4,049 nucleotides of DNA, from the IMG/VR virus record IMGVR_UViG_3300006879_000664, positions 1-4,049 of that record. One strand, given 5' to 3'. Shown here one piece after another: positions 1-3,499 of this stretch. Every line of letters starts with the position of its first letter. The stretch's first letter is position 1. The notes beneath the pieces were generated by a model that worked only from the letters and a program-made list of their open reading frames with translations, made no database searches and was not told where the DNA came from. Both the position numbers and the translations under genes were made by a program. Source of the DNA: a virus. Taxonomy: Duplodnaviria > Heunggongvirae > Uroviricota > Caudoviricetes.

Positions 1-2
1 AG

Positions 3-77
3 GCGCGCCAGCTTTTCGATACAGCTTCTCAGGTCTGTGAAATTGTCGACGGTGTTCGGCAGTGTATGCAGAACTGA
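3..77 (+). CDS. Possible 3' end of an upstream gene running off the left edge (partial; perhaps the last lysis-cassette gene, Rz-like)
   Basis: Seen in sequence: the frame starting at nt 3 is open from the window edge to TGA at 75-77 and translates as ARQLFDTASQVCEIVDGVRQCMQN*. Established knowledge: in lambdoid phages the lysis cassette lies upstream of cos. Only 24 codons are visible and a second frame (1-87) is also open, so identity and even coding status are not supportable from this window. Confidence 0.2.
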   Translation, partial: ARQLFDTASQVCEIVDGVRQCMQN

Positions 78-251
78 TCGCCTGTAAGAGCAGAATATTT
101 TGCTGAAAAATGAAGGATGCGTCAGCGTCCGGAAAGCATGAAATTCTGTGTTTGTGGCTATTCAATAAAATAAATTCTTTCTGTCGCCGCGAATACTCAA
201 ATGTTGATCAGTGCCCGGTGCGGTGACGGGCTTCGATATCAGGAGACGATG

Positions 252-548
252 ATGGAAAAAACAGAAAACAAACCGATTGCAATTGGTGCTGATGCTGCTC
301 CGTTTAAGTTTGAGTTGTCTCAATTGGTGGAGATGCGCATCAGTGATGAATGGGGTGAGGTTAAAGCCCGTGCGCAGTATGCGGATGGCGAAAACCAGTA
401 CTTGATCCACTACAAAGCAGCTGATGGTCGCGCCACGACGGAGTGGTTTGGTGAGTCAATGCTGGAAGCAACAGAAGATGATCGTCATCCTGGTTGTCCG
501 GTATTTGCTGGTATGGAATTACTGGAAGGTGCGGTAGTTACTGAGTAA
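252..548 (+). CDS. Hypothetical small acidic protein (98 aa), function unknown, encoded immediately upstream of cos
   Basis: Seen in sequence: ORF 201-548 in the track, with a Shine-Dalgarno-like AGGAG at 241-245 followed by tandem ATG codons at 249 and 252 (spacing 3 and 6 nt) and TAA at 546-548. The ATG at 201 has no recognisable RBS. The product is Asp/Glu-rich with no obvious signal peptide or transmembrane segment and carries an internal duplicated motif (SDEWGEV and TTEWFGES, each near a YxADG / KAADG segment). I do not recognise the family. Confidence 0.6.
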   Translation: MEKTENKPIAIGADAAPFKFELSQLVEMRISDEWGEVKARAQYADGENQYLIHYKAADGRATTEWFGESMLEATEDDRHPGCPVFAGMELLEGAVVTE

Positions 549-715
549 CAGGCATTACAGCAGCTCTTCAGCGAGGGGCTGCGATAATGCAGGTGTTAGA
601 GTGTGTGCAAATGATAATTAGTCCCATTTTCACGGGTCCTTCCTGAAATTTGGAACACCGAGGGTCTGGGGACGCGCAAAAACGCGCTATTTATGAAAAT
701 TTTCAGGGAAAAAGC

Positions 716-732
716 AGATCCGTTCTTCTTCT
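716..732 (+). promoter_or_regulatory. R3-like terminase small-subunit binding repeat (AGATCCGTTCTTCTTCT)
   Basis: Seen in sequence: 17-mer sharing the AGATCC(G/T)TTCTT core with the elements at 764-780 (inverted) and 816-832. It includes the CCGTTCTTCTTC block I recall from lambda cosB and a GATC site. Confidence 0.6.
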
Positions 733-763
733 GGCTAACCTGTTGTTTAATATAATTTTCTTG

Positions 764-780
764 AAAAAAAGAAAGGATCT
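764..780 (-). promoter_or_regulatory. R2-like terminase small-subunit binding repeat (inverted copy; reverse complement AGATCCTTTCTTTTTTT)
   Basis: Seen in sequence: the reverse complement of 764-780 matches the 816-832 element at 15 of 17 positions. The inverted orientation relative to R3 and R1 mirrors the lambda cosB arrangement. Contains a GATC site. Confidence 0.6.
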
Positions 781-815
781 GGCAGCGGTGATTTTTCACT
801 GAAAAAAGCGTTTTG

Positions 816-832
816 AGATCCTTTCTTCTTTT
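816..832 (+). promoter_or_regulatory. R1-like terminase small-subunit binding repeat (AGATCCTTTCTTCTTTT)
   Basis: Seen in sequence: direct copy of the AGATCC(G/T)TTCTT core, ending about 18 nt before the Nu1 start codon. Contains a GATC site. Confidence 0.6.
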
Positions 833-849
833 TGTGAGGAATATGTGCC

Positions 850-1398
850 GTGAAGGTTAACAAAAAGAAACTGGCGGAAATTTTTGAGTGCGATGTCAGA
901 ACAATCACTGGCTGGCAAAGTCAGGGGCTGAGAGTTTTGTCGGGGGGAGGCAAAGGTATCGAGGCCATGTTCAATACTGCAGAAGCCATTGAATGGTATG
1001 CGCAGCGGGAAAAAGATATCGAAAACGAAAAGCTCCGCAAAGAACTGGATGATTTGCGTGCGGCTGCAGAATCAGATTTACAACCCGGCACCATTGACTA
1101 TGAACGCTACCGGCTAACCAAAGCACAGGCTGACGCACAGGAGCTGAAAAATGCCCGTGAAGAAGGGCTGGTGCTGGAAACGGAATTGTTTACCTTCATT
1201 CTGCAACGTGTGGCACAGGAGATTTCGGGGATACTTGTACGTGTGCCGCTGACATTACAGCGTAAATATCCGGATATTTCACCGTCACACCTTGATGTGG
1301 TGAAAACTGAAATCGCGAAAGCCTCCAATGTTGCAGCTAAAGCCGGTGAAAACGTGGGCAGGTGGATTGATGATTTCAGACGCACAGAAGGCAGCTAA
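850..1398 (+). CDS. nu1: Terminase small subunit (lambda gpNu1 family), 182 aa, GTG start
   Basis: Seen in sequence: ORF 850-1398 with GTG at 850 and a GAGGA Shine-Dalgarno at 836-840. An in-frame TGA at 835-837 excludes any upstream start, and the ATG at 843 is out of frame. Established knowledge (recalled): the translation is collinear with lambda gpNu1 along its whole length, for example VNKK-LA-IF, the GGGKG motif, [33 protein letters not shown] and a similar length (182 vs about 181 aa). The N-terminus is the winged-HTH DNA-binding domain in lambda. Confidence 0.95.
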
Positions 1399-3286
1399 TG
1401 CAGCCGGTGCGATAGCTACAGGGCTTTTATCTCTCAATATTCCGGTTCCACTGACGACGGTTCAGTGGGCTGATCAACATTATTATCTGCCGAAAGAATC
1501 TTCATATACCCCCGGGCAATGGGAAACCCTGCCGTTTCAGGTTGCCATTATGAACAGCATGGGAAATGACCGGATCCGCACCGTTAATCTGATTAAATCG
1601 GCGCGCGTTGGTTACACCAAAATGCTGTTGGGGGTGGAGGCTTATTTTATTGAGCATAAATCCCGTAACAGTCTGCTTTTTCAGCCAACAGATTCTGCGG
1701 CAGAAGATTTCATGAAATCTCATGTTGAGCCAACGATCAGGGATGTCCCTGCATTGCTGGAGCTGGCTCCATGGTTCGGAAGAAAGCACCGCGATAATAC
1801 ACTCACCCTGAAGCGTTTTTCCTCCGGTGTGGGTTTCTGGTGCCTAGGTGGTGCCGCTGCTAAAAACTACCGTGAAAAATCTGTGGATGTGGTCTGCTAT
1901 GACGAACTCTCCTCGTTTGAACCGGATGTGGAAAAAGAAGGTTCGCCGACGCTGCTTGGCGATAAGCGTATCGAAGGCTCGGTATGGCCTAAATCCATAC
2001 GTGGCTCAACGCCAAAAATTAAAGGCTCCTGCCAGATTGAGAAAGCCGCAAATGAATCAGCGCATTTCATGCGGTTTTATGTCCCTTGCCCTCATTGCGG
2101 GGAGGCCCAGTATCTGAAGTTTGGCGATGATGCGACGCCGTTTGGCCTGAAATGGGAGAAGGGTAAACCGGAAACGGTGTATTACCTGTGTGAACATAAT
2201 GGCTGTGTGATCCGCCAGTCAGAACTTGACCAGAGCGGCGGACGCTGGATTTGTGACAATACCGGGATGTGGACGCACGACGGCCTGGCATTTTACAGCG
2301 CCGGTGATGAGGAGATGCCGCCACCGCGCTCAATCACGTACCACGTGTGGACAGCGTACAGTCCGTTCACCACCTGGGTACAGATTGTTTATGACTGGCT
2401 GGATGCGCTGAAGGATCCGAACGGTGTTAAGACGTTTATTAACACCACGCTCGGGGAGCCCTATGAAGAGGCTGTGGCAGAAAAACTGAGCTTTGAGTTG
2501 TTACTGGAAAAAGTCTGCCACTATGGCGCGCAGGTTCCCCTGCGGGTGGTTTACCTGACCGCAGGGATCGACTCACAGAAAGATCGCTATGAAATTTATG
2601 TCTGGGGCTGGGCTCCCGGCGAAGAAGCCTTTCTCATTGACAAGCAAATTATCATGGGGCGACCGGAAGACGAGGACACCCTTAAACGTGTTGATACGGT
2701 GATCCGGAAAAAATATCGCCATGCTGACGGTACTGAAATTTCCATTTCCCGCGTCTGCTGGGATACCGGTGGTATCGACCAGGACATTGTGTATCAGCGT
2801 TCCAGAAAACACGGCACTTTTTTTGTGCTTCCCATTAAAGGGGCATCGGTGTACGGCAAGCCGGTGATCACCATGCCTAAAAAGCGCAACCAGCGTGGTG
2901 TGTTTTTGTGTGAGGTGGGCTCCGATACCGTCAAGGAAATGCTGTACGCCCGTTTTGCCCTGCCGGTGGTTTCTGCCAGTGAAGCCGCCCCGTATACCTT
3001 CCGTTTTCCGGATAACCCGGACATTTTTTCGGAAGAAGAAGCACGTCAAATCGTGGCGGAAGAACTGGTGGAAAAGGTGGTTAATGGCAGGGTGAAACTG
3101 CTGTGGGATAAAAAAGGGCGACGCAACGAAGCCCTCGACTGCCTGGTATATGCCTATGCTGCCCTGCGTATTTCAGTACAACGATGGCAACTGGACCTTG
3201 AGGCACTGGCCCGGGCACGAAGAGACGAGCAGGATGAGGATGATATGAGTCTGGAAGAGATCGCGGCTGCACTGAGTGGAGGATAA
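1370..3286 (+). CDS. A: Terminase large subunit (lambda gpA family), 638 aa from ATG 1370
   Basis: Seen in sequence: the long ORF ends at TAA 3284-3286. Established knowledge (recalled): it is collinear with lambda gpA, including YYLPKES, WETLPFQ-AIMN, the Walker A-like KSARVGYT (1595-1618), [84 protein letters not shown], the nuclease-region LTAGIDSQ (2555-2578), [12 protein letters not shown] and NEALDC-VYA-AALRIS. Start choice is inference: ATG 1370 is preceded by AGGTGGA (1360-1366) and places YY at residues 38-39 exactly as in lambda gpA, whereas the track's ATG 1328 adds 14 residues and has no obvious RBS. The gene overlaps the Nu1 3' end by 29 nt in a different frame. Confidence 0.95.
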
Positions 3287-3289
3287 GTG

Positions 3290-3499
3290 ATGATTTATAC
3301 ACATGAGATGCTTTGTGATGCCCGCCGGGCATTACATGAACTGATGATCGGACGTGCTGTGGTTTCCGTCAGCAAGGACGGGCGTCAGGTTCAGTATTCG
3401 CGGGCGACGATTGGTGAACTGCGTCAGTATATTGAAGAGCTGGAAAGTGCGCTGGGTGTATCCGGACGGCGTCGCGGCCCGGCAGGAGTGGGGCTGTGA
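3290..3499 (+). CDS. W: Head-tail joining / head completion protein (lambda gpW family), 69 aa
   Basis: Seen in sequence: ATG 3290 (the track starts at the adjacent GTG 3287) is preceded by GGAGGA at 3278-3283, 3 nt after the terminase large-subunit stop; TGA at 3497-3499. Established knowledge (recalled): the product matches lambda gpW in length and in the motifs AR-ALH-LM-G, KDGR-V, YI-ELE and the C-terminal RRRGPAG. Confidence 0.9.
   Translation: MIYTHEMLCDARRALHELMIGRAVVSVSKDGRQVQYSRATIGELRQYIEELESALGVSGRRRGPAGVGL

Follow-up and report, generated by a model that had tools for sequence, protein, structure and literature searches.

Lambdoid phages carry cargo in a slot between their lysis genes and cos, and in the window analysed here (the whole stretch of DNA, 4,049 bases, which forms the right end of a lambdoid late region) that slot carries one small acidic reading frame. 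What does this frame encode, and what might its product do for the phage? A sequence-only reading of the window had concluded that nothing identifies the function. That conclusion stands insofar as no annotation library names one, and was too pessimistic insofar as the fold and the profile comparisons point to the HspQ/YccV type of SH3-like barrel, a testable lead from which we infer a candidate function. New in this study are a large phage domain family that lacks a Pfam model, its predicted SH3-like fold and its probable distant relation to HspQ/YccV. The DNA features of the window are as follows.

201..548, + strand: target open reading frame as it stands in the open reading frame list (coding sequence 252..548)
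241..245, + strand: Shine-Dalgarno sequence AGGAG, 6 nt before ATG 252 and 3 nt before the alternative ATG 249
252..548, + strand: coding sequence of 98 aa plus stop, equal to phiP27 L33 and PHROG 1935; acidic cytoplasmic protein
552..590, + strand: hairpin GCATTA..GCAGCTCTTC-agc-GAGGGGCTGC..TAATGC, 4 nt past the stop codon, with no T-run
632..845, + strand: lambda-type cos, with cosQ at 632-639, cosN at about 657-690 and the cosB R sites at about 716-830
850..1398, + strand: Nu1 (Pfam Phage_Nu1, E 2.7e-85)
1370..3286: gpA
3287..3499: gpW
after gpW, to the end of the window: portal gene, start only

Gene start, coding evidence and expression

Read mechanically, the frame at 201..548 would give a protein of 115 aa, and phiP27 L33 is annotated in this longer form, from ATG 201; the ribosome binding site and the N termini of homologs speak against it. 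The true start is almost certainly ATG 252, to judge from the sequence, because AGGAG lies 6 nt before it, the PGAP annotation of E. coli M8 has a 98-aa coding sequence, and homologs begin with MEK. The resulting protein shares 95.9% identity with L33. The acidic 98-aa frame with a good ribosome binding site that the sequence-only reading had described is thereby borne out: the product has 20 D+E against 9 K+R, a pI of 4.48 and a net charge of about -11, and by eye its sequence contains neither a signal peptide nor a membrane segment.

The frame is intact in 87 of 87 related loci, and the median dN/dS is 0.18 (44 distinct pairs, dS above 0.05). A spurious reading frame was considered and excluded on these two values and on the wide range of homologs. 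Conservation across related prophages, which the earlier reading had proposed to check, is thus present, and no structural or lysis family was matched. We conclude that this is a genuine, selected and widespread phage gene of the late operon.

A consensus scan of both strands of window 1-900 found no sigma-70-like promoter, although a weak or atypical promoter could escape such a scan, and called no intrinsic terminator in the same interval. The scan thus gave no promoter and terminator pair of the kind that had been suggested as something to look for, and the simplest reading places the gene on the late transcript rather than making it a self-expressed moron. Across loci its orientation is always that of the late genes, the gaps between genes are often short, and its placement is in the late operon. 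A 170-nt spacer (window 78-248) separates the end of the L32-like gene upstream from the ribosome binding site of the target; it contains no promoter-like site, and a 38-aa open reading frame within it (110..226) has no Pfam or PHROG match.

The sequence-only reading had proposed accessory cargo, and part of this holds: the gene lies between the lysis cassette and cos and is accessory, uncharacterised and non-essential-looking. The part that finds no support is a moron with its own signals. A moron expressed from the prophage to the benefit of the lysogen, for example in defence or exclusion, would fit the cargo slot, the stable hairpin 3' of the gene, the presence or absence of the gene among related phages and its insertion between the apparent gpM and gpL genes of P2-like prophages. 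It is at odds with the lack of a promoter-like site in the 170 nt upstream and of a canonical terminator, with the constant orientation and often tight spacing relative to late genes, with a PADLOC search that returned no defence-family match, and with a protein that by eye has no signal peptide or membrane segment. The sole PADLOC match, Cas6_IIIh (E 0.009, 13.5 bits), was rejected as noise. On balance we consider a lysogen-serving moron improbable, and favor a gene that is expressed late.

A mosaic joint between the gene and cos

The window is 96.5% identical in nucleotide sequence to phiP27 (L001 6001-6596) over positions 3-598, and the identity ends just before cos. Past this joint, phiP27 has an HNH gene and an HK97-type terminase, and the window phage has lambda-type cos, Nu1 and gpA. 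Since the identity stops at 598, the gene belongs to the lysis-side module and a mosaic joint lies between it and cos. Across 80 E. coli-type viral loci, at least three packaging modules are found attached to this lysis-side block: Nu1 plus gpA, gpA lacking Nu1, and the phiP27 arrangement of HNH plus terS and terL of the HK97 type.

Set against what we take to be the lambda sequence, the cos junction and window 632-884 are collinear (173 of 233 positions identical); cosQ falls at 632-639 and cosN at about 669, and a block of 20/20 matches spans 685-704. Three R-type repeats follow at about 716-830, before the Nu1 start at 850; repeats D5, I1 and I4 also speak for cos. Given cosQ at 632-639, the stop codon of the frame (546-548) lies 84 nt upstream of it, in agreement with the earlier placement of the gene directly upstream of cos, on the presumed lambda sequence. 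The gene has no functional tie to cos: it is also found upstream of unrelated packaging modules.

One prophage matches the whole window, that of E. coli M8 (L002 16945-20049). It is a hybrid of a lambda head and a myovirus tail: its lambda-type Nu1, gpA, W, portal, S49 protease, decoration protein and FI are accompanied by baseplate genes of the contractile-tail type (baseplate V, GPW/gp25 and a baseplate assembly protein).

The hairpin at 552-590 has a minimum free energy of -27.8 kcal/mol (z -3.7) and no T-run. It lies 11-15 nt past the stop codon in 28 of the 80 E. coli-type loci and in 0 of 173 others, and the same 40-nt element also follows other genes in Fels-1, cdtI and phi458. Rfam matches at E <= 1 were at chance level only, far below the gathering scores. 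The hairpin looks like a conserved module-boundary or recombination element, or is possibly an mRNA 3' structure, at the point where the lysis-side module ends; it is not part of the protein family. In cdtI (L257, NC_009514), the sequence just upstream of the hairpin, at about 1441-1497, encodes GCPVFAGMKLPEGAVVTE*, which is the family's C-terminal tail in a reading frame other than that of the annotated orf60 ('start codon is not identified'). The slot differs among related phages: Fels-1 has a different gene there and cdtI only a 3' remnant, and for cdtI a recombination joint inside the gene is implied; the gene as a whole is present or absent from one relative to the next.

A widespread phage family

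Homologs form 104 clusters across Enterobacterales, with hosts that include E. coli, Shigella, Salmonella, Enterobacter, Klebsiella, Yersinia, Edwardsiella and Kluyvera. The gene occurs in 164 of 5,426 complete E. coli genomes, in up to five copies per genome, always labelled 'hypothetical protein'. Among the isolated phages that carry it are phiP27 (L33), vB_EcoM-613R2, the Yersinia phages vB_YpM_41 and 44, P2-like ESSI2 phages and two Burkholderia phages. An exhaustive profile search over 1.84 billion cluster representatives, in which family clusters are defined at 50% identity, recovered 700 proteins at E <= 1e-3 and 144 at E <= 1e-10.

Annotation libraries place the protein without naming a function. 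PHROG 1935 matches over the full length (E 6.5e-59, residues 2-99 against profile positions 1-98 of 116) and PHROG 8618 over the core domain only (E 3.2e-25). No Pfam family was found in the target at E <= 1, Nu1, Rz and Bor included, in a scan that did recover the Nu1 gene; the sequence-only reading had likewise seen no resemblance to these three. Nine other family members gave no Pfam match at E <= 10, an NCBIfam scan of the window protein (E <= 10) gave neither HspQ nor any other match, and a single-protein search of PDB sequences gave no meaningful match.

Most members are short stand-alone proteins (57-70 aa) equivalent to residues 17-75 in the window protein, with the consensus FKF.L.Q.V.I..SGE.G.V..RAEY....N.Y...YKAADGRA.E.WW.ES.L. 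The window protein adds to this core a variable N-terminal stretch of about 18 residues and a conserved tail. The two protein features are these.

303..473, + strand: core domain, predicted five-stranded SH3-like beta-barrel, residues 19-75 in 99-aa numbering, common to the members of about 60 aa and the part that aligns to HspQ/YccV
486..533, + strand: conserved C-terminal extension HPGCPV[FY]A..LPEGA, residues 80-95

The HPGCPV tail is confined to an enterobacterial subfamily of about 95 aa and is absent from the 60-aa members. Within the tail P81 is invariant, and G82, C83, V85, L91, P92 and G94 are conserved in at least 90% of sequences. By sequence, the putative barrel is the founding domain of a large phage family that has no Pfam model.

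Some members are larger. Two have a tandem two-domain form (P0105 and P0109), and three are fused to unannotated C-terminal regions (P0171, P0190 and P0236); the extended or fused members from P0107 to P0236 showed no informative Pfam domain. In fusions the core is also accompanied by long C-terminal stretches in which two other motifs without a Pfam model recur, 'F.W..TPQG.DFW...' and 'KLE.GK.Y..R.G..YGP', and one fusion gene (L095 5001-6167) adjoins a HigB-like toxin and HTH pair. Two long hits were set aside as artefacts of repeats: P0153 (1032 aa, 10 stretches) and P0232 (877 aa, 8 stretches), in both of which a propeller or Ig-like motif similar to 'YKAADG..WF' recurs. P0153 is glycoside-hydrolase-like; its roughly ten repeats, nearly identical and each about 48 residues long, contain 'YFKSADGQLQDWWF' and imitate the family motif 'YKAADGRA..WF'. 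They gave the protein a spurious E of 1.8e-13 in the profile search, which should be kept in mind when an HMM of the family is built.

Genomic context across phages

Where enough upstream sequence was available, the commonest order among the 80 E. coli-type viral loci was holin, holin, endolysin, L32 and then the gene. In Edwardsiella, Yersinia vastinensis, Kluyvera and Izhakiella the gene directly follows an apparent Rz/Rz1 on the same strand and precedes terS and terL. P2-like prophages have it between reading frames that we read by eye as gpM and gpL, with Phage_GPL confirmed immediately downstream (L094). In Pseudocitrobacter a DNA methyltransferase is followed by the gene and then by a holin, and a 59-aa member lies directly upstream of a P22-type small terminase, Terminase_6 and portal.

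We took 203 loci with enough flanking sequence, dereplicated them to 78 downstream clusters, and scored the longest open reading frame within 3.5 kb as the neighbor. This largest downstream gene was a large terminase, of four Pfam types, in 14 of the 78 clusters, a portal in 3 and a methylase in 4; in other clusters it was an integrase, helicase, reverse transcriptase or DNA polymerase. With downstream genes so varied and four terminase types among them, the family is a widespread phage domain that often precedes packaging genes and is tied to no single terminase.

These data bear on a role as an accessory factor in packaging or head assembly, in which the protein would aid terminase, portal or head completion. 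Such a role would account for the position beside the packaging genes. However, the partners would belong to four unrelated terminase systems, which argues against a specific packaging interaction; the E. coli-type gene moves with the lysis block, and the mosaic joint falls between it and cos; Fels-1 and related phages lack the gene at the same position; in many distant members the nearby genes are methylases, integrases, helicases or polymerases instead; and at L006 the gene stands before the holin. A packaging factor is therefore, in our view, an unlikely though serious candidate.

DNA binding, as first described for YccV, would have the protein recognise hemimethylated or newly replicated DNA and couple this to late functions. 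The immediate upstream neighbor of the gene at L006 is a DNA methyltransferase, a methylase is the largest downstream gene in the 4 clusters just mentioned, and many SH3, Tudor and KOW relatives bind nucleic acids. Yet the protein is strongly acidic, and R41 is the sole nearly invariant basic residue in the family alignments, which contain no conserved basic patch; the methylase adjacency may also be due to chance, because methylases are common in phage genomes. DNA binding has, we believe, a slim prospect of being right.

A predicted SH3-like barrel and its likeness to HspQ/YccV

AlphaFold gave a pLDDT of 71.8 with 25 sequences and 88.2 with a 91-sequence alignment (A2), and the A2 model has a pLDDT of 93-97 across residues 21-80. 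The model is a five-stranded antiparallel kinked beta-barrel, the property that defines the YccV fold (PMC8138528). In the tail it has a short strand at 80-84 (pLDDT about 86), and no helix follows the barrel. As a model-based prediction, the SH3-like barrel fold is secure. In the BFVD viral fold library, the only matches were to small phage proteins that are themselves uncharacterised (best E 2.3e-3). The internal duplication of about 25 residues that the sequence-only reading had perceived is not upheld: the best internal local alignment scored 22, compared to 20.1 +/- 3.5 for shuffled sequences (28% of which were as good), and it joined segments other than the pair that had been named. The two-repeat small domain that had been suggested gives way, in the model, to a single barrel.

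Profile comparison suggests a particular kind of barrel. We confirmed the HspQ sequence against PDB 5ycq_A; a search for HspQ homologs yielded only sequences at least 78% identical, and the HspQ profile is therefore shallow. Against this profile, with a Neff of only 1.9, hhalign aligned A2 over the entire domain (72 columns) with a probability of 86.8% and a P of 4.3e-6. The real score was 35.6, compared to 10.6 +/- 2.3 for 150 column-shuffled HspQ profiles (maximum 23.1, maximum probability 18%) and 9.1 for the reversed HspQ profile. The same register was found with the distant-only alignments A3 (60.5%) and A4 (58%). The probability varies with alignment depth: the shallow alignments A1 (3.8%) and A5 (6.2%) did not recover the register, and against the single HspQ sequence the value was 33%. 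Searched against PDB sequences, the A2 profile did not retrieve HspQ; it gave weak, non-significant matches to a superoxide dismutase (0.055) and a MYST chromo-barrel (0.086). None of the ten members scanned (the window protein and nine others) matched PF08755 (YccV-like), which true HspQ homologs all match, and by this measure the family appears to fall outside PF08755 as currently defined.

The protein might instead be an SH3-like barrel of a generic kind, unrelated to HspQ in particular, in which case its function could not be inferred from a known family. We regard a generic barrel as rather unlikely. Homology, with the phage barrel as a minimal, distant relative of HspQ/YccV, is probable, although the depth-dependent probabilities and the missing PF08755 match speak against it. 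We found no paper linking the phage family to HspQ/YccV and none on any phage homolog.

Proposed role

A small, very acidic barrel without a catalytic motif is most likely a binding module. HspQ is both a substrate and an allosteric activator of Lon, and in its acetylated form it inhibits ClpS (PMC6719616, PMC10665427). PDIP38 carries the YccV fold (PMC8138528), and the PDB entry matched in our structure comparison describes PDIP38 as a ClpX-associated factor. YccV-like domains are also found among plastid Clp interactors (PMC8889267). Because YccV-type domains are recurrently paired with AAA+ proteases, our leading hypothesis is a late-expressed binder of a host factor. The barrel protein would be made late in infection and would bind the host factor by protein-protein contact; the factor would most plausibly be Lon or the ClpS-ClpAP system, and binding would alter host degradation during virion assembly.

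As a whole, the best explanation of the locus, to which we give a probability of about 35%, would be a late HspQ-like barrel that binds the host protease machinery. Its more specific parts carry less weight. That the target would be Lon or ClpS-ClpAP in particular is doubtful, and that the family as a whole might consist of widespread minimal HspQ mimics that dock onto Lon or ClpS-ClpAP and reprogram or blunt proteolysis is more doubtful still. Within the family, no fusion or neighbor connects the domain to a protease.

Significance

Should both the HspQ link and the protease target be true, hundreds of phage lineages would carry an unnoticed module of 60-100 aa that acts on AAA+ proteolysis, with a bearing on phage development, on abortive infection based on toxin-antitoxin systems and on prophage induction. 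Minimal HspQ mimics would then form a new and widespread class of phage-encoded protease modulators, and the domain would offer a compact tool for probing the regulation of Lon and ClpS. If the likeness to HspQ is at the level of the fold only, this is an ordinary conserved hypothetical phage gene. Independently of mechanism, the analysis defines a Pfam-less family (700 clusters at 50% identity) with a confidently predicted fold, corrects the gene start in phiP27-type annotations, and locates a sharp mosaic joint (gene, hairpin, cos) at which one lysis block has been recombined onto different packaging modules.

Comparison with known systems

The closest comparison is with HspQ itself, the E. 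coli heat-shock protein that also acts as a specificity-enhancing factor for Lon. The motifs of the two proteins correspond throughout, both have a pI of about 4.5, and in the hhalign alignment the HP..P of the window protein's tail falls on the HPEQP of HspQ. However, identity is only 16-21%, and the tail HPGCPVFAGMELLEGAVVTE is otherwise unrelated to the HspQ ...MDELAQTIRKQLQAPRLRN. HspQ has a loop of about 16 residues between strands 2 and 3 that the window protein lacks, and it continues into a C-terminal helix and a Lon-binding C-terminal tail (PMC10665427), both of which are likewise absent from the window protein; most family members end directly after the barrel. The settings also differ, HspQ being the product of a chromosomal heat-shock gene and the window protein being phage-encoded in a late operon.

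In PDIP38/POLDIP2, which acts with ClpX, and in the plastid Clp proteins, the YccV domain lies inside larger multidomain proteins and has extended strands, whereas the phage domain stands alone. Phages are also known to encode inhibitors of Lon, T4 PinA and T7 gp4.5 being examples, and these are products of early or middle genes. If the proposed mechanism is right, the likeness to PinA and gp4.5 would be one of strategy only, in that a small phage protein would retune a host AAA+ protease; unlike their genes, the gene described here belongs to the late operon.
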